Shown one piece after another: positions 20,232-54,616 of a stretch of 64,000 bases of DNA. A program made the position numbers and the translations under genes. This DNA is from a virus. The DNA lies in the IMG/VR virus record IMGVR_UViG_3300027586_000003, positions 41,002-105,001 of that record; one strand, given 5' to 3'. Each line of letters opens with the position of its first letter. Position 1 is the stretch's first letter. Below the pieces are notes generated by a model that ran no database searches, was not told where the DNA came from, and saw only the letters and a list, made by a program, of their open reading frames with translations.

Positions 20232-20663
20232 CTACACTGTTCGCGGCCCGAACTTGGCATCCAACTCTTTCAGATACGCCTCCATCTCCGGTGACTGCTC
20301 CCACACCGTCCCGTCATCCGGCACAAGGCGGCGGTCAACATCCTTCGGAAACTGCGTGAAGCTCGCTACGTCATTCGGCGTTGGCAACAATTCGACAGCC
20401 CGCGCCGGGTCATCCATCGGCACCACGGACAGATTGTAGTTTCCGCACAGCCTGATAAGGCTGTCGCAGAACAACTCCGGCTCGTCGGTGATGTCCACGC
20501 TCCGCTCGCTCTCCGGGTCAAAAAAGTCCTGCTTGACGACCATTTCCGTCGCGGCGGTGTCCGTCCAGCGCATCCTGCCGTCCGGCAGAAACTCAATCTC
20601 ACCAGCCCAAATTCTCGCCTGTGTTTCACGCGAAAACTCCTGAATTTGAATGTGACGGCTCAT
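20232..20663 (-). CDS. Acidic hypothetical protein coupled to the kinase gene (possible immunity/partner)
   Basis: ATGA overlap with the kinase stop; D/E-rich 143 aa. Confidence 0.6.
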   Translation of the reverse strand: MSRHIQIQEFSRETQARIWAGEIEFLPDGRMRWTDTAATEMVVKQDFFDPESERSVDITDEPELFCDSLIRLCGNYNLSVVPMDDPARAVELLPTPNDVASFTQFPKDVDRRLVPDDGTVWEQSPEMEAYLKELDAKFGPRTV

Positions 20664-22384
20664 GGTGCTCTCAGTCTAGCAAGGAAATTATCCGCATCTT
20701 TCGTCCCATGCGCCGACTTGCGCATCGCCTTGAAAAAAGTCGGGTTTGCGCCGCCGCTGGCATGAAGCATGGGTTGCAGATTAGCCGCACGCTGTTTCAT
20801 TGTCGAGACTGAACCGGGCAACAATCCATGCGTTGCTCCAAAGGTGTCAAGCCACGTTGCGAATTCTGGAGAATTTACTTTTCTTGAAAGCTCTGAAACT
20901 CTCCGGTCTGCCGCTGCATCCATCTGAACCTCGTGCGCAAAAACCATCGCCGTAGAGACGTTGCCCCCAACAAGCCCGGTGTGCTCGTAGGTGTGGTGGC
21001 TCTCTGGCAACGTCAATCCGTGGTCAATTGGATGAAGCCTTCCAACCTTGTCAACCATCATGTTGCCACTATGTCGGTCAGTGTTTCCAGTGATGTAGTC
21101 AAGCACTGCCAACTCCGCCAACCTAGACTTGTCATTATCCCAAAGTTTCGGCCAAAACTTCTTTGCGCGAACCTCATCCCCGTAAGCGTTTTTGGTAGGC
21201 ACTGAATCAGGATCGAAGTCAATCAACGATTGCAGTGAGCCTTTCTTGCCGTCCACTATCACCATCGCTGTTATGGAATGCTCAATCCCAAGTTGTTTTG
21301 CAATATCGTAGGAGGCAACCTCACGCTTCGCGCCGCTAACTGCACGATCATCAATGTTCGATCTGGCACCCTTACCTTCACCCGATTCCGGCTTGAAGAC
21401 GCCTTTCGTAACGGTTCCGTCGGCTGCGGTAGCCTTCAGAATGAAAGACTGGCTGTAGTTTTGCCTGCCGCCCAACTTGTCCAATTTTCTTGTGGTTGAA
21501 GTTGCAATATCGCCCGCCACTTTCTGCTGTTCGGCGTGAATGTTGGATTGGAAATTTCCGGGTGTGACTGGCGCAATTGGCTGCGCTGCCGGGGCGGCTT
21601 GGGCTACGGGGGCCACGGGGCGCATCGAATTTCGCTCCATGTGCGCTATCACGTCCTGCTGCCACCTTTTAATCCGTGGGGCAGCACCGTTCAGATTCAC
21701 GCCGCGCACAGCAGCCACGTCGTTGCGATAAATCGCCTGATTGATTGCGGCGATTCCAGCCCTTCCGATTGGTGCGTGTGCCTGTGGCCTAATGACTGGC
21801 GCACGCGGTGGCAGATGTTGCGCCGCTGCTTGCCGTGCAATAATCGCCGCTTGGCCTCGCAACGGGCCAGCCGCCGGGGGTTGCACTGCTGCCTGCCGTG
21901 CGATGTCCGCCGCGATTTTAGCGTCACGGACGGCCTGTGCGTTGGCTTCGGCGGCACGGGCGTTGTGTTCGGCCACAATGACCGCCCGGCGGGCGTCCTC
22001 TGGCGACGGAACTGGCAATGGGGCCGGTCGCTGAATCGCCGGGCGTGCGGCCTGCGGCGGTGGAGCCGTGTCCGGTCTGCCGGGGAGCGCACGGCGAGGG
22101 GGCCACTCGGCTGACATCGGATTCGGTTTCTCAACATCCGCCACCCGTTGCAGCCTGCCGCCGACCTTGGCGTAGTGCTTCCTGCCAAACTTGGGTATCT
22201 TCCCAATATCGCCTTGATTACCAGCCCCAGCCCCGACGTGGCACTTCAGGTCGCCTGCGATGAATCCGTCGCCGCACGCCTTACCACCACGCACACGGGC
22301 GTTTGCCAGCGTGCGTGCCGTGCGAACAATCTCGGCGTATGCTTGGTTGAGCATTTTTTGGAAATTAACTAAGCCGCTTGCCAT
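20660..22384 (-). CDS. Tagged protein with C-terminal PI3/PI4-kinase / HipA-like kinase domain
   Basis: GVFKP, KREVASY, GSLQ, DYITGNTDRHSGN and IDHGL motifs; N-terminal LAN...KACGDGFIAGDLKCHVG tag; Ala/Pro linker. Confidence 0.85.
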   Translation of the reverse strand: MASGLVNFQKMLNQAYAEIVRTARTLANARVRGGKACGDGFIAGDLKCHVGAGAGNQGDIGKIPKFGRKHYAKVGGRLQRVADVEKPNPMSAEWPPRRALPGRPDTAPPPQAARPAIQRPAPLPVPSPEDARRAVIVAEHNARAAEANAQAVRDAKIAADIARQAAVQPPAAGPLRGQAAIIARQAAAQHLPPRAPVIRPQAHAPIGRAGIAAINQAIYRNDVAAVRGVNLNGAAPRIKRWQQDVIAHMERNSMRPVAPVAQAAPAAQPIAPVTPGNFQSNIHAEQQKVAGDIATSTTRKLDKLGGRQNYSQSFILKATAADGTVTKGVFKPESGEGKGARSNIDDRAVSGAKREVASYDIAKQLGIEHSITAMVIVDGKKGSLQSLIDFDPDSVPTKNAYGDEVRAKKFWPKLWDNDKSRLAELAVLDYITGNTDRHSGNMMVDKVGRLHPIDHGLTLPESHHTYEHTGLVGGNVSTAMVFAHEVQMDAAADRRVSELSRKVNSPEFATWLDTFGATHGLLPGSVSTMKQRAANLQPMLHASGGANPTFFKAMRKSAHGTKDADNFLARLRAP

Positions 22385-23369: not shown

Positions 23370-26300
23370 TTAGGATTGCTGCGATGTAAACGCGAGTTCC
23401 GGGTGTTCGTCCGGCTCGTCAGCGCGATTCTTCATCGCCTCCGATTCTTCGAGAATCTTGGCACGAACCTGCTCCGGCGTGACCTCAAAGTTTTTTTCCA
23501 GCACCCAATCACGGACGGACGCCTTGACCGCCCCGATTTGAGTCCCCTTGAGCTTGGGAGCCGCAGCCATAATGTCCTTGCCGGTGAACACGGCTGAGAG
23601 CCGCTTTTCCATCTCCTCTTTCTTGCCGAACTGCTCAACCAAGCGGTCGGCACGGCCCATCTTTTTCTCGAAATCCTCCGCCTTGAACAGCGCACCACGG
23701 GACGCTTCATCGCTGCGCATGACCTCTCGCAGCAGCGGCCAGTTCTTCTCCTGCCGGAACCGCAGCGCGAGCCTGTCGCTCACCGCGTCGAAGTTGTGGC
23801 CGACCATGTGGTGTTCCACCGCCAGCGCAATCGCCTCTTTCTGCTCGTTGCTGAACTTCAACCGTGCGGCTGCCTTCTCCAAGAGCGGGATGCCAGCGGC
23901 CTCGTGCGCGATGTAGGTCGGCTGGCCGTCCTTCTCACCACGGGTGGTGGCCTTGCCGATGTCGTGAAGCAGAATGGCGACGTTCGTTGTCGCATCATTG
24001 GTGTTGCTGGCCTTGACCGCCTCCAAGACGTGCTCATACACGCCGCCCTCCGGGTGGTGCTTCGGGTTGTGCGGCAGTCCACGCATCGCCGCCACCTCTG
24101 GCAGCGTGTGCTCCAGCAGCCCGGCCTCGCTCATCACCGACACGAACTTCGCCAGCGACTTGCCGTTGTCCGCCGCCTTGAACACCTCGTCACGGATGCG
24201 CTCGCCGGAAATCGTGGCGACTGACGGAGCCAGTTTCTTCATGGCGTCCATCGTCTTCGCTTCAATGTCGAAGCCCAGCCGACCGGCGAACCTCGCCGCC
24301 CGAATCATCCGCAACGGGTCTTCAGTGAACCTTGCCTCCGGGTCGCCGACGGCGCGAATCACCTTGGCTTCTATGTCGGCTTTGCCGTTCTGCGGGTCAA
24401 CCAAGTTGCCTGCGGCGTCCATCGCCATCGCATTGATGGTAAAGTCACGACGCTTCGAGTCTTCATCGAAGCTGCCCGCCGCCGTGACAGAATCCGGCCT
24501 GCGCTGGTCGGTGTAAGCCCCGTCCGTGCGGAACTGTGCGACCTCGAATGTGTGGCCCTCATGTGGAATCGCCACAATGCCAAAGTCTGCGCTGTTGCCG
24601 ATTTCGTGCGAGCGGAAAGCGGACTGCAACTTCGCTGCGGGCAGCGGCGTCGCAATGTCGAAGTCCTTCGGCGTCTTGCCCATCACCATGTCTCTGACCG
24701 CGCCGCCGACAATGAGCGGATTCGTGCCGGGGAACTGCCGTTCAATCTCACCGAGGATGGACACGGCAGCCTTGGCCTGCGGGTTCGACTCAGCCATCTC
24801 TTTCAATCCGCCGCCTTCCTTGGGTGCGAACTTGCCGTCGGCGGCGCGAGGGTGAAGCGACTCCTCAAACTCGCCGGAGTTACTGATTTTGTTGCTCGAC
24901 TTGTTGAACCGTTTAGAGAGCGGGATGACGTTGCCTTGGTCGTCGCGGGTGATGGGGTCGGCGGATTTGATTTGGGAGGGGCTGAAGACGACAGTGACAT
25001 TGCTCGTGGCTGTCTGCCCCCCTTCGACTACGTTGCTTACCTTGAGAGAATCATGCCCGCGAGTTTGGGCAATGCCTGCGATGTCTCCTATGTCGCTGCG
25101 AGTATTGCCGTAGGTTACATCATACCACTGGGAGCCTTTTGCATCGACTGACAGCGGGTTATTAGTTTTAAGAAACACCTCCATTTGTGGCAGGTCGTTC
25201 ACCGGAGAGTCTGCAAAGTATATCCCGTCACCTACGTCGTTTGAAAATTCAGTGAACTTCTTATCTGTCCCGTGATAAGCCTTGGTGCCATACCCCGCCG
25301 CCTTCGCCGCCTCATCCACCATCTTCTGAGCCGTGAACGTGTCGCCCGACGCCACCGCGCCTGCGTAGGCCGCGTCCTGCTCAGGTGTGACCCCCACATG
25401 GCAAGTGTCGCCGGACTCAATAAAGCTCTCGCCGCAGGGCTGGCCGCTGTTGCTGATTTTGTTGCTCGCCCTGTTGAACCGTTTAGAAAGTGGGATGACG
25501 TTGCCAGCGGAGTCGAACACAACAGGTGAAGACGACTTTATCCTAGCGGAGTCGAAAACAGCTATCTCCCTGCTGCGAGTTTTCACTTCACCAAGCCCAC
25601 CAGCCGTCATATATCCACTGACAGAATTGAATCCTTTTCTTATTAAGTCATCAATGTCTCTGCTAGATATGTTACTTGAAGACCTTATCCCGTCTTTAAC
25701 TGTTGCCGTTCGCCCCAAGTTGACAAAGTATTTTACAGGCTTCATCATACCAACACCAATGTCTGTGAACTTCAAAAGCCTGTTTGAATCTTCAACCGTC
25801 GGTGTTAGATAGACTGCTTTCCTATACGTTGTTTTTCCAACGCCTTCAGATGGCTTGTAGTCGTCCGGCAACTTGCCAGCGTCAACCGCCTTGACCCAAG
25901 CATCGGCCCCGTGCTTGGCCGCAAAGTCACCCCAAACCTCATTCTCAATCGAAAGCGGTGTCCGTGGATACTCGGTTTGAAAAACCTCAATCGGCGACCC
26001 ATTTCTGGTTCGATGGTAGGCAACCGTGTAGCCAGCCGCCTTCGCCGCATCGTCCACCATCTTCTGAGCGGTCACAGTGTCACCCGCCGCCACCGCACCC
26101 GTATAGGCTGCGTCCTGCTCCGGCGTAACTCCGACGTGGCAAGTGTCTCCGGCTTCGATGAATGAATCACCGCACGGCTGGCCGCTGTTGCTGATGTTCC
26201 TGTCGCCCTTACTCCATGTGCCACGGTTGAATGCCGATTTAATCTGTTCAGGACGCAATGCGATGTAACTTGTGCCTTTGGACTCGCCCTTGTTATCGTA

Positions 26301-29300
26301 AATAACACCGTCGTAACCAATGCTGTTGAGCCACTTCACGTTCACGAGCCATCGCCCCTTGCTGCCATAGGTCGAGTTCTCGTTCAGTTCATCAATCCAT
26401 TCTTTGTGTTTGGATTTAGAGATTACCCCTTCGTTGAACATCTTGTTGTGAACATTGTGCCAATCAAAATCATCCAGCCTTAGTGGGTTTTTTATGCTGA
26501 TATAAACAGGCTTTATGTTCGCGCCTTCGGCGTAGGCTGGGTTTTCGTATCCTTGAAAGAATCGGCTTCTAAAGTTGTAATTTATGATGTCGTTTGCCTG
26601 CTGTGCCGTTCCGAAATGCGAGCCTAAACCTTCCTTTACCCTTCCAAACTCCGTGAAACCAGCATTGGTTCCGTGATAGACCACAAGCGGCTTCCCGTCC
26701 TTATCCACAACCTTCGAGTCTCCGAACCATTCCTTGAACTCAGGCGATTCTGTGCTGGCGGGCCTGAGTGCTGGCGCGGTCTGGCCTTCACCTTCACCAA
26801 CATGGCACGTTTTGTCTGCGGAGATTGACGACTCACCGCACGGCTTGCCGGTGTTTCTGTTCAGCATCGGTTCGTCACGATTCGCCAGCTTCTTCGGCGC
26901 AATGCCCATCTCCTTTGTGAACTTGTTTGCCGCCTTCAACACATCTTTGATGTCCATGTCAATTCGGCGCGTCTTGATTTTTGTGTCGCCGAACTTTCCG
27001 TCCTTCGCATCCAGCCCAATCTTCGCCGCCCAGCGGTGGTGCCCATCAATCACATAGCCATCACGCGACACGAAGATGGAGTTCTCATCAAGGCCGACCG
27101 CCTTCTGACCCTCCGGCGACATCATAAACGCCACGTTGCTGCCCTTCAACTCGCTCTGCGACGCTTTCAATGAAGAAGCAGGTTGGTCAATGTCTTCGGT
27201 CTTGACGCCCTTCTTTAAGAGGCTCTGAACGAACGCTTCGCCGACATTAACCTCGCCCGCTTTATCCTTCGGGAAATTTTTCTCATCGTCCACGGTTGAA
27301 CCTTTTACCGGAAACCCAGCCAGTTGCGGCATCTCGGAGCGTGGAATCGGCTTACCGTCGTCGCCCTTCAATGACTCGCCGCAGAACAGGTTGGTTCCCG
27401 GCACGGACACCTTGCACAGATTCAGGTTTACCTTCTCGCCGCTCTTCTTAGCTTCGTTAGCAAACTTGTGGATTTCCTCAATTGCGGTGTTGACCTCTTT
27501 CACGCTTTTCAGAACCACGTCACCACCGCCTTTAAGCGCAGTGACCGCCGCCTTGCCAGCCTCCTCTTCCGCTGTGGCCTTCACCGGCTTCTCCTCAACC
27601 GCCTTGACCGCAGCTTCCGGTGCCTTCGGCGATTCAGCCGCCTTGGCCGCTTCCGGCTGTGCGCCAAGATACTCGCCTATCTTGTCGGAAAGTTTGCGCG
27701 ACGCGCCGATGGCTCGCTGTTGCTGCTGCAAGGCGTGAAGGACTTTCAGTTCCTTCATCTTGTCTGTGTCAGGAAGAGCCTTCGCTGTCTCGACGTGCGC
27801 CTTCAACTCGCCAAGCAATTTGCCAACCTCTTCGATGCTTTTCGGCTTCACCATCTTGATTTGGCCGGACGCTGCCATTGTGGACATGGGCTTGGCACCC
27901 GCAGAATCCGTCTTGCCCGCCTTATCCGCCTTCGGAGTCGCCGCCACCGCCGCCGTGACCGGCGCATCCTTTGTCGGGGCTGTCTCGCCAATGTGGCACT
28001 CCATTTCCTCGCCGATGAATGACTTGCCGCACGCCTTGTTTTCCAGTGTGCCTTCGCTGTTCTCCTTGACCAACTTCGCAATCTGTTCGTGCATCTCCTC
28101 TGCGGACACACCACGCGGGAATATAAAGCTCACGCGCCCGCCCGGAGCGGCATTCTGCAAGCGAATCTCCGCCATCTTGCCAAGGTCGAAAATAGCGAGT
28201 TCCTTCAACTGCTTGGCCTGCTCCATTGCGCCGCCGACCGCCTTGTGAATCTGAACCACGTCCAAGAAAATCTTGCCGCTCACCTTGTCAAACCAGCCGC
28301 CCATGTGCGCCAGAGGGTCTTTCTTCAACGTCTCTGCCGCCCGGTCGAAGAAACCCTTCACCGCCTTGACGGAAAGCTGCTTGGCGTTCAACACCACCTC
28401 TAAATGCTTGTAGGCACTGACTGCGAAGCCGGACTTTGGAGACTTGTTCTGAGCCGGTTCGTAGGTGAAGCCGCCTGACTTCCTGAGCTTCGTCACCAAC
28501 TGCTTTCCCTCTGCGTGTGAGAAGTCACCTTCACGGCACGTCTTGTCATCGGAAATGAAGGACGCACCGCATGGCTTGTTCGACAGCGCATCGTCTTCAA
28601 TCCACGGTGCGTCGTTGTCCAGTTCTTCGCTGACCGGCTGCGTCGTGTCCTCCATCTTCAACCACGCCTTGAACTCGTCAACCGTCATCGGCGTCACGTC
28701 GCCGACCCGCTCTGCACCGCGACCGTCGCTGAATCCCTTATGATATGTGCTGAGTGCGGTGAACAGGTTCGGGAACGCCAGCATGACCTTGTGTTCGTCA
28801 AAGTCACCCGTGTTGGCATCCACTTGGTCAATCACAAACACCTTGCTGGAATCGGGTGCGTCGCCGAGATACACGTCAACCTCATCTCCGTCGGCTCCCT
28901 CAGTGTCAATGACGTAGCCATACGAAGCTGGCATCACCGTCGCCCAAGTTTCCCCTTCACTGTTCGTCCCACTACGGACGCCGCCCTTGGGATTCTCGAC
29001 GCTGATTGACAGGCCGTTCCACGTCGCCTCGCCCTTCAGGTAGTTGCCGGACTCTTTCTGCGCATCCGTCGGAGCCGCCGCCACCGTCACCGGCTGGCCT
29101 AGCACGGTCGCTGCCACTATGTCGGTGCGGTTGTTGAACTTGCTGTTGTTGCTATTGAACCGCTGGGAAAGCGGAATCACACTGCCAGTATCATCACGAA
29201 CAACCGCATCACTTCGCTTGAATTTTGAAGTGTCAAAGATTGCAATATGCCTTCCGGTCGCTCCCGGCCCGTCGTGTATCGCCGCCGAGAATCCAGCCTT

Positions 29301-30008
29301 CAAAAGTCCAGCGGCTACGCTGCCATACCGACGCTCCAGCGAGATAAGCGGCAAAGCGTCAGTCACAGTTCTTCCGAGAAGTGTTCCGACGGCACCCGCA
29401 ACTTCCGGCGTTATTGGCTTTGTCATGTCAACCACACGACCGCCAACGTAACCGGACGCAACTCGGCCAGAGGCAAGTTGCGCTGGATTCCAAGAGCCTT
29501 CCAAGGTCGCATAAATCGCGGGGCCAAGCACCGCTCCTTCCCTTGACTTTGAAATGTCGAAGTCTGCAAAATTAGCATTGGTTCTGTGAACAGCCGGGCC
29601 AACCGTATATCCAGCCGCCGCCGCCGCTTCATCCACCATCTTCTGAGCCGTGGCCGTGTCACCAGACTCCACCGCCTTCGCATACGCCGCGTCCTTCTCC
29701 GGCGTCACCCCAACATGGCAAGTGTCGCCATCCTCAACAAATCCAGCCCCGCACGGCTGGCCGTTCGTAAGCCGCTCAAACGAGTTTGGAACGCTAACCG
29801 CAGGATTAGCCCATTCACTCACCCTGTTCGCCCACGCGCCAGCCTGACGCGCAGGCGGGCCATTCTGGATGAACTCTTTGAACGCAGCACCTCCGGGAAG
29901 GACGGATTGCAATACTTGGCGGGTGACTGCCGCCGGAAACCGGGAGCGGTTCAGGAACGCAACCACCTCACGAACCCGCGTAGCGTAAATAACGGAGGGG
30001 TTGTGCAT
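23370..30008 (-). CDS. Polyvalent protein (2212 aa): 4 ART-PolyVal-like domains, InPase domain, ParB/Srx-like domain, unknown domain, C-terminal CCA-adding enzyme with HD domain
   Basis: FKEWFGDSKVVDKDGKPLVVYHGT...IKNPL...GYDGVIY...QIKS (ART-PolyVal); GNYLKG..W.GLSISVENPKG..R.G...YGY...GADGDEVDVYLG (InPase); DGYVIDGHHRWAA (ParB-like); VGGAVRD/DFDIAT/RRDFTINAMA/EDPLRMIRAARF/HHPEG/LLHDIGK (class II nucleotidyltransferase + HD). Confidence 0.9.
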   Translation of the reverse strand: MHNPSVIYATRVREVVAFLNRSRFPAAVTRQVLQSVLPGGAAFKEFIQNGPPARQAGAWANRVSEWANPAVSVPNSFERLTNGQPCGAGFVEDGDTCHVGVTPEKDAAYAKAVESGDTATAQKMVDEAAAAAGYTVGPAVHRTNANFADFDISKSREGAVLGPAIYATLEGSWNPAQLASGRVASGYVGGRVVDMTKPITPEVAGAVGTLLGRTVTDALPLISLERRYGSVAAGLLKAGFSAAIHDGPGATGRHIAIFDTSKFKRSDAVVRDDTGSVIPLSQRFNSNNSKFNNRTDIVAATVLGQPVTVAAAPTDAQKESGNYLKGEATWNGLSISVENPKGGVRSGTNSEGETWATVMPASYGYVIDTEGADGDEVDVYLGDAPDSSKVFVIDQVDANTGDFDEHKVMLAFPNLFTALSTYHKGFSDGRGAERVGDVTPMTVDEFKAWLKMEDTTQPVSEELDNDAPWIEDDALSNKPCGASFISDDKTCREGDFSHAEGKQLVTKLRKSGGFTYEPAQNKSPKSGFAVSAYKHLEVVLNAKQLSVKAVKGFFDRAAETLKKDPLAHMGGWFDKVSGKIFLDVVQIHKAVGGAMEQAKQLKELAIFDLGKMAEIRLQNAAPGGRVSFIFPRGVSAEEMHEQIAKLVKENSEGTLENKACGKSFIGEEMECHIGETAPTKDAPVTAAVAATPKADKAGKTDSAGAKPMSTMAASGQIKMVKPKSIEEVGKLLGELKAHVETAKALPDTDKMKELKVLHALQQQQRAIGASRKLSDKIGEYLGAQPEAAKAAESPKAPEAAVKAVEEKPVKATAEEEAGKAAVTALKGGGDVVLKSVKEVNTAIEEIHKFANEAKKSGEKVNLNLCKVSVPGTNLFCGESLKGDDGKPIPRSEMPQLAGFPVKGSTVDDEKNFPKDKAGEVNVGEAFVQSLLKKGVKTEDIDQPASSLKASQSELKGSNVAFMMSPEGQKAVGLDENSIFVSRDGYVIDGHHRWAAKIGLDAKDGKFGDTKIKTRRIDMDIKDVLKAANKFTKEMGIAPKKLANRDEPMLNRNTGKPCGESSISADKTCHVGEGEGQTAPALRPASTESPEFKEWFGDSKVVDKDGKPLVVYHGTNAGFTEFGRVKEGLGSHFGTAQQANDIINYNFRSRFFQGYENPAYAEGANIKPVYISIKNPLRLDDFDWHNVHNKMFNEGVISKSKHKEWIDELNENSTYGSKGRWLVNVKWLNSIGYDGVIYDNKGESKGTSYIALRPEQIKSAFNRGTWSKGDRNISNSGQPCGDSFIEAGDTCHVGVTPEQDAAYTGAVAAGDTVTAQKMVDDAAKAAGYTVAYHRTRNGSPIEVFQTEYPRTPLSIENEVWGDFAAKHGADAWVKAVDAGKLPDDYKPSEGVGKTTYRKAVYLTPTVEDSNRLLKFTDIGVGMMKPVKYFVNLGRTATVKDGIRSSSNISSRDIDDLIRKGFNSVSGYMTAGGLGEVKTRSREIAVFDSARIKSSSPVVFDSAGNVIPLSKRFNRASNKISNSGQPCGESFIESGDTCHVGVTPEQDAAYAGAVASGDTFTAQKMVDEAAKAAGYGTKAYHGTDKKFTEFSNDVGDGIYFADSPVNDLPQMEVFLKTNNPLSVDAKGSQWYDVTYGNTRSDIGDIAGIAQTRGHDSLKVSNVVEGGQTATSNVTVVFSPSQIKSADPITRDDQGNVIPLSKRFNKSSNKISNSGEFEESLHPRAADGKFAPKEGGGLKEMAESNPQAKAAVSILGEIERQFPGTNPLIVGGAVRDMVMGKTPKDFDIATPLPAAKLQSAFRSHEIGNSADFGIVAIPHEGHTFEVAQFRTDGAYTDQRRPDSVTAAGSFDEDSKRRDFTINAMAMDAAGNLVDPQNGKADIEAKVIRAVGDPEARFTEDPLRMIRAARFAGRLGFDIEAKTMDAMKKLAPSVATISGERIRDEVFKAADNGKSLAKFVSVMSEAGLLEHTLPEVAAMRGLPHNPKHHPEGGVYEHVLEAVKASNTNDATTNVAILLHDIGKATTRGEKDGQPTYIAHEAAGIPLLEKAAARLKFSNEQKEAIALAVEHHMVGHNFDAVSDRLALRFRQEKNWPLLREVMRSDEASRGALFKAEDFEKKMGRADRLVEQFGKKEEMEKRLSAVFTGKDIMAAAPKLKGTQIGAVKASVRDWVLEKNFEVTPEQVRAKILEESEAMKNRADEPDEHPELAFTSQQS

Positions 30009-30911: not shown

Positions 30912-30992
30912 GGTTACGAAACCTCTTAGAATCAGCAACGTGGTCAAGAGGAAACGGTTGAACTTGTGCCGCGTTGACCGTTTCTAAAAAGC

Positions 30993-31027
30993 AAAAACCC
31001 CGGCTCCTTTCGGAAACCGGGGCTTTT
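30993..31027 (-). terminator. Rho-independent terminator after the major capsid gene
   Basis: Minus strand CCCCGGTTTCC-GAAA-GGAGCCGGGG-TTTTT. Confidence 0.85.
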
Positions 31028-31041
31028 GTTGAGATTTTCGC

Positions 31042-32477: not shown

Positions 32478-33062
32478 TTAAATGGAGTTTTTGATGGACA
32501 GTTCCGTGCGTGCCTTATGGAAGGCGTCTCGGTGAGCCATACCCTTGTTGGAAAGCTGAATCTCGGTTGTCCGGTTGCGAATCCACGCGCTGTCAGAGGC
32601 GGGCATGGTGGCAGCGGAATCGCCGACGATGGATGCCGGGAGAGCGGAACGGTTGCGATTATGCAACGGGGCGGACACGGTGGCGGTGTCAGCCGAAGGA
32701 GCAGCGGGAGCCGACTTCAGGCCGGTGAGGAACTTATACGTCGCATCACGGTTGGAAATCAGAGACTCCTTTACGGAGGCGGCGTCGCGGATGACCGACT
32801 TGAACGCTTCCACGTCGCGGTTGGCAAGCTCTTCGAGGAGGACAACCGTGCGGTTCTGGAGCGACACAATCCGCTCATTAGAAGCGGTCGTCTCAGCGTT
32901 TGCGACAGCGACTTCATCGCGTGCCTTGAGGATGGCATCGTCCATCTGCTCCTTGTAGCCGACCATATCCTTTTGGAAGGATGAGTTAGCCAAAGAGATT
33001 TCCTCGTCAGTGGCCGAATTCGCCAGACCGAGCAGACTGATAAGTTGTTCTTTGTGATTCAT
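32478..33062 (-). CDS. Scaffolding protein
   Basis: LLGL..SATDEEI motif of Mu-type scaffold regions; helical; C-terminal capsid-binding-like helix (HRDAFHKAR). Confidence 0.75.
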   Translation of the reverse strand: MNHKEQLISLLGLANSATDEEISLANSSFQKDMVGYKEQMDDAILKARDEVAVANAETTASNERIVSLQNRTVVLLEELANRDVEAFKSVIRDAASVKESLISNRDATYKFLTGLKSAPAAPSADTATVSAPLHNRNRSALPASIVGDSAATMPASDSAWIRNRTTEIQLSNKGMAHRDAFHKARTELSIKNSI

Positions 33063-34354: not shown

Positions 34355-36640
34355 CTACTCGTGCTTTTTTTGCCACTTCTCGCCAGCAATGCGTCGGCGT
34401 TCAATCATCTTACGAAATTGTGGTGAGCGAACACGGGCGTCCATCGCTGCCCGCTCTTCAGCGGTTCCAACTTGAACTGGCAGATGTTCGACTTTCACCA
34501 CCTTATGCAACTTCTCATTGCTCCGCTCAAACGGCCTGCCGAGATAATGCTTCTCCACATCTTCCTTAGTGCCGTTTATTTCTGTGGCGAAACTGTCGCC
34601 GCTGTCAAAGTGAACCTTCACGGCCCGGCGTTTGAAAACAGCGTCGTCCACGGAGGCTGGCGTTGCGGATTCTCCGACACGGCACGTCAGACCGGCTGCG
34701 ATGTGCGAGTCGCCGCAGGGCTGTCCACCGGCACCAGCGTTCACAATCGTTTCGAGCGGTTCTGTGACGGAGCGGTTCTCGTGCTTTTCTTGCCATTTCT
34801 TACCAGCAATGCGTCGGCGTTCAATCATCTTGCGAAATTGTGGCGAGCGAACGCGGGCGTCCATCGCGGCCTGTTCAGCCGCAGTTCCAACTTGAACTGC
34901 CGATGGGCCGGGACTCGCTGTTGGCGGAGCCGCAACGGGCGCAATGTCACGCGCCTTCTTGCCCTGTTCGTAAAACTGCCGCATCCGCCGAAACGCAATC
35001 TCTGTCATTTTGTCTGATTCAATCTCGCCTCGCTCTGTCGGCTCGCCTGTAACGGCGCGGTCGTAGCGGCGTCTCTCGTCCACCGACAAGAACCGCTTGA
35101 ATGATGAGGCGTTGGCGGGAAGCGCAGCCTCAACCGGGTCGGTATCAATGTCATCGCCGCCAAGCGAAAGATGATGAACACCATCGCCATTACGCCGCGT
35201 CTCCCAAGATTTCCTCACACCCTCGCTCGTTCCCGCATTCGCTATCTTTTCCCGGTCTTTGTTCAGCACTTTGAAAACTTCTCCAACCCCTTCGAGGGAC
35301 TCAACGTGCAGGAAAAGTTCCGGCAGCTTTCTAGCCTCATTTGGCTCGGCGCGGCCAGCGGCCAATACGTGTCCAGCCCCATACTTTTTGGCAGTGAATG
35401 TCTCCCTGCCAGACCGCTCAACCAATGCCTTTTGAGTCTTGCTAAGGCGGCACGTCAGACCGGCTGCGATGTGCGAGTCGCCGCACGGCTGTCCGCCAGC
35501 ACCCGCATTCACCATCGCCTCCAGCGCATCATGGTAGCGGTTAGCGTAACCCGGACGGTCACGCTCAACCATGTGGTCAATCGTCTCCATCAGGTTGTCG
35601 GCATACACGTCGTCGCGCTTGCCCTGCGGCTTCCACTGGCCCATCCGCACCTTGCCAGTTTCAACCATATAAGTGTCGTTCGCCATGAGGCGCACCTTCA
35701 CGATGCCGTGACCGAGCTTGCCGCCGTTGACTTTGAACTGAACGCCGCCCCTCTGGTAGCCGCCGTCCGGTGTCGAGCCAGCGGGCATGATGGTAAGATT
35801 TCTGGTGCCCCACGCCATTATAGCACTGCGGTCGGTGGCTTTGATTTGGTCAATAATCGTGGTGGCTATGTAGCGTTCCTCGTGCTTTTGATCGGTATCG
35901 GAATTAGGGGTTGTCTTCGGCTCGCTCTGATACGTTGGACGGGAACCGTCCCCGACACGGCATTGATGCCCATCGGGAATGTGCGAGTCGCCGCAGGGTT
36001 GAGAATTTGAATAGCGGCGAGGAGGTGGCAAGTCGGCGGATAGGTATTTCCCATATTTAGGGTGAGTTTTCTCCGAAATGATAACAGCACGCTTGTCGCC
36101 GTCACGTAATCGGTCAATACGCGACGATGAAGCATGAATCTCAACAATCTGGCCGTTAAACTTAACGTATTTCGCCCCATCCCCGAGAATTACCGCATCT
36201 ATGCGAGCAATCTGTTTTGACGACTCTTGTGGAGCCGCGCCTTGACCGACACGGCATTGATGCCCGTCGGGGATGTGGCTGTCGCCGCAGGGCTGTGAGT
36301 TGAACAGGCTGCCGACGCTGTTGCTAACCGAGTGCGAGTCCTTCCACATCTTCCGCTCCTTGATTTCCTCACCAACCTTGGCGAGTCCTTCAAGCGAGTT
36401 CGGGTCATCCTTCGTGACGAGTGCGCTCTCCGAAAGTGACGCGAGACGCGAGTTTCGCATTGCGCTCATTGCCGCCCGGTAGCCGCCGTTCTCCATCTCT
36501 TCATCGTCGTCACCTTCATAGTCGTTGACGATCTTGGTGTCATAGTCGTTGACAATCTTGGTGTCGGCGGCTTGCTCGTCGTCGGCCTCACACTTGGCGC
36601 AGCCGCACCCGCCGTTAAACAGTTTGTAGAACTGTGTCAT
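34355..36640 (-). CDS. Modular head-region polyprotein (761 aa) with 4 C-x10-C tags and small cargo domains
   Basis: NSQPCGDSHIPDGHQCRVG x2, NAGAGGQPCGDSHIAAGLTCR x2, NAGTSEGVRKSWETRR; internal ~40-aa duplication (34360-34480 / 34780-34900). Confidence 0.8.
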   Translation of the reverse strand: MTQFYKLFNGGCGCAKCEADDEQAADTKIVNDYDTKIVNDYEGDDDEEMENGGYRAAMSAMRNSRLASLSESALVTKDDPNSLEGLAKVGEEIKERKMWKDSHSVSNSVGSLFNSQPCGDSHIPDGHQCRVGQGAAPQESSKQIARIDAVILGDGAKYVKFNGQIVEIHASSSRIDRLRDGDKRAVIISEKTHPKYGKYLSADLPPPRRYSNSQPCGDSHIPDGHQCRVGDGSRPTYQSEPKTTPNSDTDQKHEERYIATTIIDQIKATDRSAIMAWGTRNLTIMPAGSTPDGGYQRGGVQFKVNGGKLGHGIVKVRLMANDTYMVETGKVRMGQWKPQGKRDDVYADNLMETIDHMVERDRPGYANRYHDALEAMVNAGAGGQPCGDSHIAAGLTCRLSKTQKALVERSGRETFTAKKYGAGHVLAAGRAEPNEARKLPELFLHVESLEGVGEVFKVLNKDREKIANAGTSEGVRKSWETRRNGDGVHHLSLGGDDIDTDPVEAALPANASSFKRFLSVDERRRYDRAVTGEPTERGEIESDKMTEIAFRRMRQFYEQGKKARDIAPVAAPPTASPGPSAVQVGTAAEQAAMDARVRSPQFRKMIERRRIAGKKWQEKHENRSVTEPLETIVNAGAGGQPCGDSHIAAGLTCRVGESATPASVDDAVFKRRAVKVHFDSGDSFATEINGTKEDVEKHYLGRPFERSNEKLHKVVKVEHLPVQVGTAEERAAMDARVRSPQFRKMIERRRIAGEKWQKKHE

Positions 36641-36643
36641 AGC

Positions 36644-38203
36644 TCAGTTTTGTTCATCCATCCACTCCTCGTATTGCTCACGAAGGTCGTCCGGCAGCGT
36701 TTCCCCGTTGCTGGCATAGTCCGCTACTTCATCCAGCATCTCTTGAACGTCGTGCTGGTAGTTCTTCAGCAGACCGCCACGGAAGCTGTTGAGCAGCGCA
36801 CCGTAGGCACGGTTTCCGAGCGATGATGCGTGCGCGGCCTTGGCCTTCACCAGTGCGGGGTGATACTTGCTGTGAATCTCCTTGAGAATGGATTCAGCCT
36901 TGGCCTTGAGTGCGTTCTGCGCCTCAGTGCCATCGCCGAAGTCACGGGCGCGGGCGTAGTAAGCCTTAGCGCGGGACACGTTCTGACCGATGAGGCCGTT
37001 CGCCTTGTCCGGCTCGCTGCCCTTGCCGTATTTCTCGCGGATGCCGCCGGGCTTCGTCACTGGCTCGTAGCCGTGGATGGTGTGGAAATCTTCGCCACGG
37101 GAATTCTTCTCGAAGTCCGCATTCGGTTTCCAAGAACCCGCTGCAATCGCGGTGTGAACGTCCTTCGGCAAATCCAGTTCGATGTTCTTCTGCCCATCAA
37201 GCTGACCTTGGATTGTCAACTTGACGTGCTTGCCGCTGCCGCTTTCGTGGTCGAACGTGTCGCCAGCACGGACGCCGCCGCGACGGGTCAGCCAACCTTC
37301 GTGTGCGCCTTCGGAGTTGCCTGCGTTCTCCACGCCGTCTTTCTTCCACGGCGGAACCCACGCTTTCTTGCCGTCTTTATCCTCTTCATCGCCGTCATCG
37401 TTCGGGCCTTTGCCGTCTTTGTGTTCCGGCTCTTTCTTGGCGTCGTCTTTTATGTCGCCAAGGGAGTTTTGGCCCTTCTTGAACAGCACGAACTCGCCGT
37501 TTGCCATCTTTTTGTTCGCGCCTTCACCTTCTTTTTCTTCGTCTATTCCGCCATCCTTCGCATCCTCTTCTTTATCTTTGGACTCGTCTGCCGCGATGTC
37601 GCCAAGGGAGTTCTGCCCTTTCTTGAACAGCTTGAACTCGCCGTTCGCCAGCGCGTCGGCGGGCTTCGTGGCGGCGGCGAGCTTGTTGGCGAGGGTGTCG
37701 GCGTCGGGCTGTGCTGAATTTTTATATGCCGGAGTCGCCCCACCTTTCACAAGCCTCGCTTTCAAAGTTGGGTGCATCTTCGTTGCGTCATGCGGGAAAT
37801 CCCAAGTGGACGACCTTGGGTGAACTGGGTTGGAGTAGGTCTCGTTGTCCGCGTGAAGGTATTGAACCCCGTCCTTGTGTTTCTTAATCAAGGGAGGCCC
37901 GTCGCCGTTTGATGCGTCCACAACCCGCTTATTCGCATCCTCGCTTCCTGCCCACTTCACATACTCTTCCAACCGCTTCCTTTGCTCAGGAAATTCTTTC
38001 GGGTCATTGGCTGCGATGCTGGCGCGAACACTGGCAACCGTGTCTTTTGGCTGTAATCCGCCACCTCCCGCCCGCCGCGTCTCCCAGCCTTTCAGCGCAC
38101 CTTCCGACGTGCCGTTCACCAGCGCAAGGTCGGAAGCCCGCTTGGCCGCAAGGCTGTTTCCGTGGTTGCGTCCGTTGCTTACCGAAAAAGGAGTGCGCTT
38201 CAT
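36644..38203 (-). CDS. Charged low-complexity head-region polyprotein (519 aa)
   Basis: NGTSEGALKGWETRR / NAGNSEGAHEGWLTRR; duplicated ANGEF.LFKKGQNSLGDI; first gene of the head operon. Confidence 0.75.
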   Translation of the reverse strand: MKRTPFSVSNGRNHGNSLAAKRASDLALVNGTSEGALKGWETRRAGGGGLQPKDTVASVRASIAANDPKEFPEQRKRLEEYVKWAGSEDANKRVVDASNGDGPPLIKKHKDGVQYLHADNETYSNPVHPRSSTWDFPHDATKMHPTLKARLVKGGATPAYKNSAQPDADTLANKLAAATKPADALANGEFKLFKKGQNSLGDIAADESKDKEEDAKDGGIDEEKEGEGANKKMANGEFVLFKKGQNSLGDIKDDAKKEPEHKDGKGPNDDGDEEDKDGKKAWVPPWKKDGVENAGNSEGAHEGWLTRRGGVRAGDTFDHESGSGKHVKLTIQGQLDGQKNIELDLPKDVHTAIAAGSWKPNADFEKNSRGEDFHTIHGYEPVTKPGGIREKYGKGSEPDKANGLIGQNVSRAKAYYARARDFGDGTEAQNALKAKAESILKEIHSKYHPALVKAKAAHASSLGNRAYGALLNSFRGGLLKNYQHDVQEMLDEVADYASNGETLPDDLREQYEEWMDEQN

Positions 38204-38271
38204 AGGTAGCGCACACGTAACTTTACCGCCATCGTTTGCAAGCGCAAAACGTCAGGCGACCGTCGGCAGGT

Positions 38272-39246
38272 TCATGCAGCTACCAAAGCCCTCGCCACGG
38301 TCAACGCCCGATACTTCACCTTGGCACCGTTGCCCCACCAGACGTGCTCCAAGCGGCGGCTGGACTTGTCTTCGGCGTAGTAGGGCCGGTAGTCCTCGTA
38401 TTCGGTCACGGCATTGTAAGCCGCCCACAGCGTCCCGCGCACCCCGCGCTCGGCGTTGCCCCGGCCAGTCTCGAAAAGCTGCGTCAGCTTGTCCTCCGCA
38501 CGCCACCCGGTTAAGGCTGGACGCTGATACACCTTACGGAAGTATGCGTTTACCGTTTCTGCATTCAGGTTTACGCCCGCCATGCCGGTGAACAGTTCGC
38601 CCGCTTTCTCGAAAGTGTTGACCGCAGTTTCCATGATGCGTGACGCCGCTGCGACGTTCTCCGCTACGTTCAGCCGGTGACGACTGCCGCCGAACGCTTC
38701 GTAATCGCTGAGTGCCAGCCGCAGCGTATTCTCGCAGCAGACTCGGACGCCCGTGAAGCCGTATAGAACACGGGATTGACCGTCGTGCGAGTTCGACAAC
38801 AGCGCATACTTCCGCACCACGTCGTCTCGCTTCACCCGAATCTCGCCCGCTAGTCGCACCAACGCCCACACGCGCCGACCGCCATGAAGCGAGCCTGCCG
38901 TTTCATAACAGCCGCCATGCTCCCGCAGAATCGGGTCAAAGAAGGCGAAGGCGTCCCGGTTTTGAAAGGACGTATAGTGATTGCCGACCACCCCCACTGC
39001 CCGCTCGGTGTCCATCCGCACGTTGACGAACGCACTTGCGACTGTCTCGTGCCCGCCCGTGCGCTTGAACAGCACGGGACGCTTCTCGACGCTCCAGTTC
39101 AGCCCGGCGGCGTCAATCGCAAGGCTGCTGTCTCGGCAGTTGTCGCCGATGTCCAGCCCTAGCCCGTGCCACGCTGGCTGCGTGTTAAAGGCCATTGTCT
39201 CGACGCCGCCACTGGCGGTCGGTGTTGCTTGTGTTTGTCTTGGCAT
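38272..39246 (-). CDS. DUF932 family phage/plasmid protein
   Basis: PAWHGLG...AGLNWSVEK...YETAGSLHGGRRVW...NSHDG...RVCCENTL...GTLWAAYNAVTEY. Confidence 0.88.
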   Translation of the reverse strand: MPRQTQATPTASGGVETMAFNTQPAWHGLGLDIGDNCRDSSLAIDAAGLNWSVEKRPVLFKRTGGHETVASAFVNVRMDTERAVGVVGNHYTSFQNRDAFAFFDPILREHGGCYETAGSLHGGRRVWALVRLAGEIRVKRDDVVRKYALLSNSHDGQSRVLYGFTGVRVCCENTLRLALSDYEAFGGSRHRLNVAENVAAASRIMETAVNTFEKAGELFTGMAGVNLNAETVNAYFRKVYQRPALTGWRAEDKLTQLFETGRGNAERGVRGTLWAAYNAVTEYEDYRPYYAEDKSSRRLEHVWWGNGAKVKYRALTVARALVAA

Positions 39247-39251
39247 AATGG

Positions 39252-39620
39252 TTATCGGTCAGCCGCAGTGTCAGCGAAGTGTTCAGTCCGGCACGTATCA
39301 TCTTCCGGCTCACGGTCTGGCGGCTCCGGGCCGTCGTCATCCGCACCCGCCAAGCTCTCACGGGCCGCTTCCTCCAAGGCTTCCTTGCATCGTGCAGGAA
39401 TGAAATCCCATTCAAGCTCTGTGCCGTCATCCTTGCGAGTGACCTTGATGATTTCAACCTCGTCCGGTTCCTCCGGGTGTCCGGGGTCGCCGTTGCGGAG
39501 ATACATGACCGCCGCATGGCCGGGCCAATAGTTCGCCTCCACGTTGACCTCGACCTCGACACACTCAGTCTCCGTGTCAACGAGCGTCAGCGTCATTCCA
39601 AATTGCAGTTTGCGTTTCAT
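39252..39620 (-). CDS. Acidic hypothetical protein
   Basis: 122 aa, NGDPGHPEEPDEVEI motif. Confidence 0.65.
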   Translation of the reverse strand: MKRKLQFGMTLTLVDTETECVEVEVNVEANYWPGHAAVMYLRNGDPGHPEEPDEVEIIKVTRKDDGTELEWDFIPARCKEALEEAARESLAGADDDGPEPPDREPEDDTCRTEHFADTAADR

Positions 39621-39632
39621 TTCAGTGTTTGG

Positions 39633-40127
39633 TTAAGCCGCCGGGAAGTTTACCACAGGTGCGCCGCCCTCTTTGCGATACGTGACGTTGTAGCCAGCCA
39701 CCTTCAGATGCCCAGCCGTTGCCCGGGCGTGCGCCAATGCCTTTGCCGCCGGAACGTCGGGCCACTGCGCAACCACCAAGGCCGCAATCTCACGGGCCGT
39801 CAGCACGCCGTCAAAGACGTGCTCGGCAATGAAGGCACGCCTGCCACCCCAAGTCAGCACGGGCCGTCCTGCGGGCCTCGCCACGGGCAAGGAAGCCACG
39901 GGTGCGATGCCAGCCGCAGTTAACACCACGGGAGCCGCCACGGGCGAGGGGGCCGCCTCCTTTGGCACCAGAGCGAACTGGCGGTCTTTCCAAATCCCGA
40001 AGTCGAATGACTTGCCGGGAATCAGGGTGTCGAAGTTGTCACGCCGCACCACAACCGAAACGCCGTCAACTAGCTGGCGTGCGTGGGTTGCTTTGGTCGG
40101 CCAATGGATTTCAGATTTTGCGCTCAT
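39633..40127 (-). CDS. Hypothetical protein (possible C-terminal winged helix)
   Basis: Preceded by a promoter and an A/C-rich leader. Confidence 0.6.
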   Translation of the reverse strand: MSAKSEIHWPTKATHARQLVDGVSVVVRRDNFDTLIPGKSFDFGIWKDRQFALVPKEAAPSPVAAPVVLTAAGIAPVASLPVARPAGRPVLTWGGRRAFIAEHVFDGVLTAREIAALVVAQWPDVPAAKALAHARATAGHLKVAGYNVTYRKEGGAPVVNFPAA

Positions 40128-40162
40128 GTCGTTGTCGTTGTTGTTGTCGTTATCTGCCGTGT

Positions 40163-40191
40163 ATCTTTGCAGCTACATAGTTTGAAGTCAA
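40163..40191 (-). promoter_or_regulatory. sigma70-like promoter
   Basis: TTGACT-N17(ending TGC)-AAAGAT. Confidence 0.55.
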
Positions 40192-40199
40192 CTCTTTTC

Positions 40200-40442
40200 T
40201 CAACTTTCTTCACGCCCCATGAATGCCCGTGCAATGTCCGCCGGATGCTCCCCCGTCTCTTCCCCCCAAAAGTGGCGAGCCGCAAGCAACTGGCCGGACG
40301 AGTTGTATTCCCGACCGCACCGGCAGTCCACGTCGCCTCCCGCCCGCCAGCCTTCCAAGGTGCAACCGCAGTCGCAGCGCATTTGCATCGGCTTGATGCT
40401 CCGGTCTTCGTTGCGTTCCCATCGTTGAATCAGTCTGCTCAT
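40200..40442 (-). CDS. Small Zn-ribbon protein
   Basis: RCDCG...DCRCGREYNSSGQLLA...WGEETGE. Confidence 0.65.
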   Translation of the reverse strand: MSRLIQRWERNEDRSIKPMQMRCDCGCTLEGWRAGGDVDCRCGREYNSSGQLLAARHFWGEETGEHPADIARAFMGREES

Positions 40443-40579
40443 TCAGTTGCCTTTCCGATTGCCGCTTTCTCGATGCGGCGGGTTGCCCGATTTGCCATTT
40501 GCTTACCTTCACGGCGAAGATGTTTCCACCAGCCGCAAAGCGACCGTGCCTTGGTTGAAGTGGCGTAGGTGATTTTCAT
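40439..40579 (-). CDS. Small basic protein (46 aa)
   Basis: MKITYATSTKARSLCGWWKHLRREGKQMANRATRR; fills the gap between neighbours with an ATGA overlap. Confidence 0.5.
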   Translation of the reverse strand: MKITYATSTKARSLCGWWKHLRREGKQMANRATRRIEKAAIGKATE

Positions 40580-40580
40580 T

Positions 40581-40940
40581 TCACGCAGGCCAGACAGCCG
40601 AAAGTTGCAGCCCGAACCGGGCCGGGTTGACCGCCGCACGGAAGGCGTTGGCGAAGGCCGCTTCATCCGCCGCCATCGCAGCCTGCTCCGCAAGCTCCCG
40701 CTCTTGCTGCTCCCGCTCGTTGGCGATGCAGGCGTCCACGCAGTTGAAGTATTCCGCCGCACACTCCTCGACCGATGCGAGGGCCATCCAGCGAGGGCGG
40801 ATGCCGTGGGCGTCCTTGTGGGCGTCGCTCACCATGCTGTAGGCGAACTGCTGCGGGCCACTGTAGCCGTGTTCCTCCAGCCATGCGGCGTCGGGAATCT
40901 CTGCGACGAACCGGGCGAGGGATTCAGGTGAGAGTTTCAT
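40581..40940 (-). CDS. Hypothetical protein
   Basis: SDAHKDAHGIRPRW motif recurrent in phage early genes; start after the (CACCAAA)n leader. Confidence 0.65.
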   Translation of the reverse strand: MKLSPESLARFVAEIPDAAWLEEHGYSGPQQFAYSMVSDAHKDAHGIRPRWMALASVEECAAEYFNCVDACIANEREQQERELAEQAAMAADEAAFANAFRAAVNPARFGLQLSAVWPA

Positions 40941-40942
40941 CA

Positions 40943-40975
40943 GTGTTTGGTGTTTGGTGTTTGGTGTTTGGTGTT
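40943..40975. repeat. 7-bp tandem repeat (GTGTTTG)x~4.5 in a 5' leader
   Basis: gtgtttggtgtttggtgtttggtgtttggtgtt. Confidence 0.85.
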
Positions 40976-40987
40976 CTAACTGTTGTG

Positions 40988-41016
40988 AGTATGCAGCCAC
41001 AGACTTCTCACGTCAA
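40988..41016 (-). promoter_or_regulatory. sigma70-like promoter
   Basis: TTGACG-N17-CATACT. Confidence 0.6.
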
Positions 41017-41023
41017 GAGTTTT

Positions 41024-41302
41024 TTACCACAATCTTTTCGACATGGAAATTTTACGGGTAGCTTTCGCCAGCGCAATCCTAGCCTCCAGCGACGCTTGCC
41101 TCTGCGCTCGCTCCTTGCACCGGCACGAAGGGCAGAGGAAACGCCCGTCGAAGCTAAGGAATGAAATGCCCATCCATTCGATGCAACCGTTGTCAATTCC
41201 ACGGTCGCACTTGTCGCACGTCTCCGTGTAATCGTAGCCGAACAAGCTCCGTAAGCTGGCCTGTGACCGGCTCTTGCCTTTGATGGAAATGCTTGGATAC
41301 AT
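41024..41302 (-). CDS. Small Zn-finger protein
   Basis: CDKC...CPSC. Confidence 0.6.
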   Translation of the reverse strand: MYPSISIKGKSRSQASLRSLFGYDYTETCDKCDRGIDNGCIEWMGISFLSFDGRFLCPSCRCKERAQRQASLEARIALAKATRKISMSKRLW

Positions 41303-41317
41303 AGTGGTGTTGGTGTT

Positions 41318-41683: not shown

Positions 41684-41689
41684 ACCAGC

Positions 41690-41718
41690 ACTGTCTCACG
41701 CTACTTGAAATCTGTCAA
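41690..41718 (-). promoter_or_regulatory. sigma70-like promoter, leaderless
   Basis: TTGACA-N17(TGA)-GACAGT-N6-ATG. Confidence 0.6.
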
Positions 41719-54167: not shown

Positions 54168-54217
54168 AGGATGGATTGATACTCGACGCGGTTCAACTCA
54201 GTCAACCGCAAAAGGAA

Positions 54218-54616
54218 TGGACACGGTGGGAGTCGAACCCACGTCCTACAAATGTTCAAACGTCACATCCACACGCTTCCCTTGACTGCCCGCCGTCGCA
54301 GCCCGCCAAGGATGGCTGTAGCGACGTTTTTGTGGGCTTGGATACGTCAGAGTGCCGCCCTTGCACCCCGCTCCGTCCTGCTATCTTCAGCGCATCGCCT
54401 TAGCAGGCGTCCAGCGTGCGCTGTCGGGGCTGATTAAGCCGCGAGAGCTTCCTCGACGAAGCCGAACCGTGCGAGAATCGCATCGGCCTCGGCCAGTGAG
54501 GGAGCCATGTCTAGTGCGTTAGCATTTGACTGGTGATTGGAGATTTAACGAGGCCAACAATCATCCTCGGCGTGTCGCGCCGTCCTAGTTTTCGTAGTCA
54601 AAACCATGACGTGCCC
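54218..54616 (-). ncRNA. ssrA: tmRNA (SsrA)
   Basis: 5' GGGCACG-TCATGGTTTTGAC; 3' GTGGG-TTCGACT-CCCAC-CGTGTCC-A with G3.U pair; internal tag frame 54523-54434 ANALDMAPSLAEADAILARFGFVEEALAA*. Confidence 0.93.

Follow-up and report, generated by a model that had tools for sequence, protein, structure and literature searches.

Phage proteins known to be injected target DNA entry, restriction, transcription or proteins of the host. The closest described systems are the phage-type polyvalent proteins, in which the InPase and ART-PolyVal families are tied to virion-associated members (PMC5512222); a polyvalent protein of phage phi24B was detected in virions by proteomics. Standalone CCA-adding enzymes of phages have been mentioned for jumbo phages (PMC7824862) and Autographiviridae (PMC7693777). 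Here we analyzed 64,000 nucleotides of a virus record in IMG/VR (IMGVR_UViG_3300027586_000003, positions 41,002 to 105,001; hereafter “the window”), in which a CCA-adding/HD module forms the C-terminal part of P0001, a polyvalent protein encoded among the head genes, and is headed by an undescribed short peptide tag. A literature search found no paper on a CCA module in a polyvalent protein, and megablast of the P0001 gene against phage records returned no match. The best-supported reading of the locus, to which we assign a probability of roughly 0.5, is that P0001 with its CCA module would be carried in the virion and injected (feature coordinates are collected in Table 1).

That the module contains a complete class II tRNA nucleotidyltransferase plus HD domain, as an initial annotation made from the letters alone had claimed, was borne out by Pfam, PHROG, a 28-homologue alignment (A1, window included) and AlphaFold alike. 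Pfam located the PolyA_pol head at aa 1766-1885 (E 4e-31), PolyA_pol_RNAbd at aa 1912-1974 and HD at aa 2000-2072, while the PHROG match was phrog_2244 “tRNA nucleotidyltransferase” (E 2e-79). All 36 invariant family positions of the alignment are kept: i) motif A (GGxVRD) and the catalytic DxD are present and invariant (G1768, G1769, V1771, R1772, D1773, D1782 and D1784); ii) motif B (RRD; R1854, D1855), motif D (EDxxR, the nucleotide template; E1896, D1897, R1900) and motif E (R1937, E1941) fall in columns that are invariant or nearly so; iii) the D and G of motif C are among the kept positions. The HD domain holds H1985, H1993, H2015-D2016, H2035, H2067 and D2100, and its metal ligands (all of these except H1993) are invariant and aligned with the HD region of E. 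coli Cca. CC-adding enzymes lack the flexible loop that separates motif A from motif B; the module has this loop at full length (FRTDGAYTDQRRPDSV), aligning without gaps to FRTESSYSDNRRPDSV of the 6IBP CCA enzyme. By sequence, the closest solved structures were the CCA enzymes 6IBP and 1MIV (E ~1e-46), followed by E. coli poly(A) polymerase (PAP; 1e-27) and the A-adding and CC-adding enzymes (~1e-17). Moreover, the AlphaFold model (pLDDT, i.e., predicted local distance difference test, 92.4; pTM, i.e., predicted template modelling score, 0.87) had the head-neck-body-tail fold, and its leading Foldseek matches were all full-length CCA enzymes (1MIV, TM 0.80 over 461 columns), the first PAP appearing at rank 22. 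Since the catalytic residues are invariant over 28 homologues and the model reaches pLDDT 92, the module is not a chance pattern. As judged from sequence and model, it is a tRNA nucleotidyltransferase of the class II CCA type, catalytically intact and joined to an HD phosphohydrolase as in E. coli Cca, with predicted activity.

The CCA equivalog models of NCBIfam scored top for the module, yet none attained its cut-off (NF009814, 224 bits against 290; TIGR02692, 217 against 439; NF008137, 177 against 451), and the pcnB subfamily model scored 170 bits. These scores point to a divergent phage clade rather than an equivalog. The phylogeny that the initial annotation had called for separated the module from one of the candidate activities: E. 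coli PcnB fell together with the PAP-like paralogues from two candidate-host genomes in a clade of their own (support 100), while the window's module grouped with its counterparts from two relatives of P0001 (P0002 and P0003), in a clade whose members are HD-bearing enzymes.

P0001 belongs to the polyvalent proteins on two counts: InPase, two ART-PolyVal domains, a ParB-like module and CCA/HD occur in one chain, and the gene lies beside tailed-phage head genes (Mu-like protease, major head gene and, directly upstream, a gp36-like gene), with tail genes on its other side. The gp36-like TAA directly abuts the P0001 ATG at 30008, and P0001 is translationally coupled into the Mu-like head operon. 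Its InPase part matched phrog_20705 “virion structural protein” and phrog_4660 “minor head protein”, plus a “DarB-like antirestriction” PHROG, and its N-terminal domain is a candidate head-targeting part. The range that the initial annotation had given for the enzyme (23440-24885) corresponds to aa 1709-2190, but the enzyme is not a gene of its own: the module is part of a single 2212-aa open reading frame (ORF), which rules out a separate cca gene. A specific InPase-CCA partnership was likewise ruled out, as InPase is also found in P0180, a relative without CCA module.

Table 1. Features of the P0001 locus (window coordinates)
Feature	Position	Strand	Basis or remark
P0001 polyvalent ORF, 2212 aa	23370..30008	-	single ORF; co-linear relatives P0002, P0003, P0180
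N-terminal domain, aa 1-80	29769..30008	-	conserved in P0002, P0003, P0180
InPase domain, aa 315-451	28656..29066	-	PF18823, E 8e-48
ParB/Srx-like module with DGHHRW motif, aa 924-1033	26910..27239	-	phrog_2859
ART-PolyVal domain 1, aa 1102-1262	26223..26705	-	PF18760, E 1e-30
ART-PolyVal domain 2, aa 1575-1684, directly upstream of CCA module	24957..25286	-	PF18760, E 2.4e-10, 41.7 bits, above cut-off
Junction ISN-SG, aa 1708-1712, hydrophobic-x-Asn, candidate protease cut site	24873..24887	-	sequence reading
HPR tag EFEESLHPRAADGKFAPK, aa 1713-1730, heads CCA module	24819..24872	-	conserved in P0002, P0003
CCA-adding/HD module with C-terminal tail, aa 1731-2212	23373..24818	-	Pfam, PHROG, alignment, AlphaFold
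Last of six module-heading Cys tags in P0001, SGQPCGESFIESGDTCHVG	25383..25448	-	motif search
Other five P0001 Cys tags	29700-29765, 28518-28583, 27978-28043, 26787-26852, 26121-26186	-	motif search
GC-rich 16-bp hairpin plus T run, just past major head gene	30992..31028	-	candidate attenuator ahead of minor-protein genes
Phage tmRNA	54215..54616	-	ARAGORN and Rfam, 98 bits

Two kinds of short tag mark the modules of P0001, here called HPR and Cys. The ISN-SG motif and short tag that the initial annotation had reported ahead of the enzyme were seen at aa 1708-1730 (...NKISN-SG-EFEESLHPRAADGKFAPK-EGGG...), the tag being HPR. In P0003, a second HPR copy heads a C-terminal HExxH module. The tag also occurs outside this family: i) P0059, an unrelated protein of 1514 aa, carries HPR tags on either side of a CCA/HD module that is only 29% identical to the window's, and a third further on; ii) in the cultured Burkholderia phage vB_E436 (record L284, 2563-4842), the annotated portal protein is a Phage_portal_3 domain (aa 123-484) fused to a PBECR3 nuclease domain (aa 612-719), and between the two stand an HPR peptide (QFKEDDHPRDADGKF) and then a Gly-rich linker, the match resting on the motif while the peptide BLAST itself was not significant (E 7). 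These two independent observations tie the HPR tag to modular head cargo.

The Cys tag (consensus GQPCGxS[FH]IxxxxxC[HR]VG) was found in 14 copies in six genes between 20660 and 50700 of the window, all on the minus strand: P0001 (six copies), the protease, a head-region gene of 761 aa, two genes downstream of P0001 and a 1097-aa protein 17 kb away (positions outside P0001 include 22276, 23276, 34048, 34717, 35995, 36289 and 50631). It was absent from all 116 loci that have a related major head gene; the CCA module was found in none of these loci either, and InPase in two. Every tag in P0001 is preceded by an [LIV]-x-N site. In a scaffold-like 194-aa protein (32478-33062, minus strand), 10 of 12 Asn residues stand in [LIV]-x-N (binomial p 5e-6), possibly the signature of an Asn-directed prohead protease; P0001 overall is not enriched (20 of 96). 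Cleavage at the ISN-SG junction is a reasonable idea, with the site a candidate only. A third linker type (N[AS]GNCGTGDGGFxxGNTC), together with a C-terminal HExxH (metallopeptidase-like) module, was seen in the relatives P0003 and P0180 and not in the window copy.

All fetched relatives of the CCA module (37/37 from IMG/VR and 80/80 from metagenomes of the Joint Genome Institute) were standalone ORFs of 340-560 aa with 31-50% identity, and fused forms recur elsewhere; thus the fusion is infrequent yet recurrent. Nearest to P0001 among the fused proteins are P0002 (2355 aa) and P0003 (2751 aa), whose CCA modules are 93% identical to the window's and whose other modules partly differ from those of P0001 (among them a 2H/Acb1-like phosphoesterase), while P0180 shares the N-terminus of P0001; the C-terminal half of the polyvalent protein is shuffled among close relatives. 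More distantly, P0004 combines ART-PolyVal and CCA (37% identity), and in about 55 other proteins of 1200-3800 aa a CCA-type head occurs together with kinase, NUDIX, cytidylyltransferase or Acb1-like domains. The middle modules of P0001 matched one short contig in IMG/VR (L203), with a standalone ParB-like ORF of 363 aa.

The nearest standalone relatives (P0060-P0067, L001 and L002) are 50-53% identical and lie on long contigs, IMG/VR virus contigs among them. Members of the P0060-P0067 clade have a conserved C-terminal extension in common, ending in a strongly basic tail. In P0066, an N-terminal module is inserted that ends in GNIIPLSRRFN and is flanked by a duplicated NFNLFVENALDHYG start, and P0061 has an ART-PolyVal insert, both being small polyvalent-type insertions in this phage clade of 50% identity.

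Virion delivery of the module is made plausible by four features: the polyvalent architecture (InPase, ART-PolyVal), the position in the head operon, the Cys tag, found also in the protease and in the head-region protein of 761 aa, and the HPR tag in the portal-PBECR3 fusion of vB_E436. Under such a mechanism, i) the 2212-aa chain would be made late; ii) its N-terminal part and/or the repeated tags would bring it into the prohead; iii) it may be cut at hydrophobic-x-Asn junctions, ISN|SG in the case of the CCA module; iv) it would exit the capsid along with the DNA; v) in the new cell, the ~56 kDa module would rebuild CCA on tRNAs and on the CCA-less transfer-messenger RNA (tmRNA) of the phage, the HD site clearing 2',3'-cyclic or 3'-phosphate ends; and vi) translation would be kept running under tRNA 3'-end damage by host defences or toxins, before phage gene expression. 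In its full form, i.e., a capsid-loaded, tagged and protease-released CCA+HD cargo that is injected and, from the first second of infection, shields translation against defences aimed at the acceptor end, with the HPR and Cys peptides serving an undescribed system of cargo loading as address or processing labels, the proposal is put forward tentatively; the counter-toxin role in particular is one that we only infer.

Several points weigh against virion delivery. Packaging, cleavage and ejection of P0001 are putative. The N-terminal domain had no Pfam match (E up to 10) and only sub-threshold matches in ESM Atlas, Pfam found no MuF, portal or metallopeptidase domain in P0001, and neither the HPR tag nor the Cys tag matched a Pfam family (E up to 10). 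All 117 fetched relatives being standalone, a CCA enzyme works well without fusion. As the module scores below the NCBIfam equivalog cut-offs, it may add CCA, A only or something else. Finally, we know of no tRNA-end-damaging defence in the host of this phage.

As to the genome and its host, the IMG/VR record spans 105,001 bp and is rated 77% complete; the genome of this uncultured phage is about 136 kb. Relatives of the major head protein (55-72% identity) were found in 80 contigs of metagenome-assembled genomes (MAGs; L077-L156), and most of the named ones belong to Verrucomicrobiota, Lentisphaerae or Kiritimatiellia; therefore the host is probably a bacterium of the Planctomycetes-Verrucomicrobia-Chlamydiae (PVC) group. 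Single MAGs can hold several head-gene copies (e.g., five loci in CAIVKH and three in CAMBRF), and such multiple and widespread loci suggest abundant prophages or related elements in PVC-group genomes.

The ORF listing for 4.5-38.2 kb of the window gave long tiling ORFs, all on the minus strand. In order, two ORFs of 519 and 761 aa without known family are followed by a Mu-like protease (PF10123; 33131-34351) and the 194-aa ORF read as scaffold. Next come the major head protein (phrog_1005) and, behind a strong hairpin terminator, an ORF of 132 aa, the gp36-like ORF and P0001. On the 3' side of P0001 follow a 312-aa ORF, a 574-aa kinase-like protein and further ORFs, including one of 2499 aa with a tail-fibre match. 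The 574-aa protein (20660-22384, minus strand) and the 312-aa gene have a leader in common; the former also contains one Cys tag, a region rich in Pro and Ala and a domain resembling PI3/PI4 kinases (PF00454, E 1.5e-11), and is a candidate cargo kinase. At the window start, the open frame 1-4479 (minus strand) apparently extends upstream as one ORF of ~3350 aa (35428-45480 of the whole record, G000), as judged from a length divisible by three, and a 1893-aa ORF comes immediately before it.

The record contains one tmRNA and zero tRNA genes. In the tmRNA, the 7-bp acceptor stem is regular and includes G3:U70, the discriminator is A and the end reads GUCC-A-UUC; as the initial annotation had stated, CCA is not encoded and has to be added enzymatically, the discriminator A standing directly before TTC. 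Its tag is 29 aa long (ANALDMAPSLAEADAILARFGFVEEALAA, ending ALAA). The tmRNA tags in eight PVC genomes are 9-10 aa long, and the start (AN) and end (ALAA) of the phage tag are host-like. Compared with three host tmRNAs, the phage tmRNA showed 52-54% identity and no clear nearest host, and an exact-pattern search of IMG/VR with its 3' part gave no match; SmpB, RtcB and 2H phosphoesterase had no match in the genome record. Among eight PVC genomes with related head genes, the tmRNA gene encodes CCA in six and does not in two, and in three of these genomes 15/15, 12/12 and 6/12 of the sampled tRNA genes encode CCA. Thus the phage tmRNA needs complete CCA synthesis, unlike the commoner host state. 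A PolyA_pol-family gene was present in each of the three host genomes searched, and both of the two whose genes were read have a CCA-type paralogue. The link between tmRNA and module is circumstantial, and a role in tmRNA maturation is compatible with the cargo reading and not exclusive of it.

Among the alternatives to virion delivery, two concern the nature of the enzyme. The module could be an RNA-tailing effector, with a PAP-like or CCACCA-adding activity that would mark host RNAs for decay in host shut-off, and in this direction point the nearly equal similarity of the head domain to E. coli PcnB (122 bits) and Cca (142 bits), and the 170 bits of the pcnB subfamily model. The CCA equivalog models score higher (224 and 217 bits), however, and PcnB and the host PAP-like paralogues stay in their own fully supported clade; moreover, the HD domain lies outside the PcnB alignment, the flexible loop is gap-free against true CCA enzymes and PAP structures come only 22nd by fold. 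We therefore regard a tailing effector as improbable, and a poly(A) polymerase was rejected as unlikely on tree placement, HD domain and profile scores. Loss of activity, with the module a relic or serving only the structure of a large head protein, has nothing specific in its favor beyond the quick shuffling of modules in polyvalent proteins, and is very hard to reconcile with the retention of 36/36 invariant positions, the confident fold prediction and a module that stays 93% identical in P0002 and P0003 while other modules differ.

The other two accept the enzyme and concern its place of action. P0001 may be a late cytoplasmic enzyme that is not packaged, a polyprotein merely co-expressed with the structural genes that would maintain tRNA 3' ends and modify host factors with its other modules in the producing cell. 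Such a role would agree with the 117/117 standalone relatives, with the neighbourhood of L002 (the one listed, unannotated), where small ORFs only and no giant ORF were seen, and with the lack of a recognised head-anchoring domain in P0001. We nevertheless consider it rather unlikely, as ART-PolyVal and InPase are families linked to polyvalent proteins of virions (PMC5512222), the Cys tags also occur in the protease and the head-region gene, and the HPR tag sits on a portal-fused module in a cultured phage. Alternatively, the main task of the module could be to mature the CCA-less tmRNA of the phage, in a host that encodes CCA in its tRNA and tmRNA genes and keeps only a repair-level CCA-adding activity. 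This would fit a phage with a tmRNA ending A-UUC and without tRNA genes, CCA encoded in 6/8 PVC tmRNA genes, and CCA encoded in every sampled tRNA gene of two of three genomes. But 3/3 searched host genomes hold a PolyA_pol-family gene (with a CCA-type paralogue in the two read), the two PVC genomes without encoded tmRNA CCA mean that the phage state may just copy that of its true host, and the case is a single one, so that we think this explanation unlikelier still than a non-packaged enzyme. As to the initial annotation's proposal that an injected enzyme matures the phage tmRNA, the need for CCA addition stood, and injection is needless for an RNA made after entry.

If virion delivery is true, injection of an RNA-repair enzyme would mean that pre-emptive counter-defence also covers the translation apparatus, and tRNA acceptor-end damage would be an immediate threat at the start of infection. 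Moreover, junction and tag delimit the CCA module so cleanly that the “cargo module” becomes a testable unit, and the cultivable Burkholderia phage, whose portal-fused effector bears the HPR tag, provides a system where packaging and cleavage are testable.

Compared with known enzymes, the module resembles bacterial PcnB in its nucleotidyltransferase head and neck (32% identity over 265 aa), but differs in its separate clade, in an alignment that leaves out the HD domain and in lower profile and fold scores for PcnB. With the multifunctional Cca of E. coli it has in common the head-neck-HD architecture, motifs A-E and the HD residues, over an alignment of 332 residues that includes HD; on the other hand, identity is 31%, the score remains below the NCBIfam equivalog cut-off (177 versus 451 bits), and the module has a C-terminal tail of ~110 extra residues and ~1700 residues of other modules ahead of it. 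Standalone phage CCA enzymes (PMC7824862, PMC7693777) are also phage-borne, but they are products of separate genes and 340-560 aa long, whereas here the enzyme sits inside a structural-operon polyprotein in a genome without tRNA genes. The injected enzymes of other phages, i.e., T4 Alt and the T4 internal proteins with a capsid targeting sequence, the N4 virion RNA polymerase and P1 DarB, are alike in concept, as they travel in the head and leave it with the DNA; none of them has a sequence relationship to P0001, and where T4 uses a short leader that is cut by the prohead protease, the targeting and cleavage of P0001 are putative only. Closest are the phage-type polyvalent proteins of Iyer, Burroughs, Anand, de Souza and Aravind (2017; PMC5512222), with which P0001 shares i) many unrelated enzyme domains in one chain, InPase, ART-PolyVal and ParB-like among them; ii) a gene beside the portal-terminase head genes; and iii) a module content that varies between close relatives. 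P0001 differs from them in being without MuF, portal or metallopeptidase domain, in the Cys and HPR tags that head its modules, and in the CCA module itself, “CCA” having 0 occurrences in the main text of that study.

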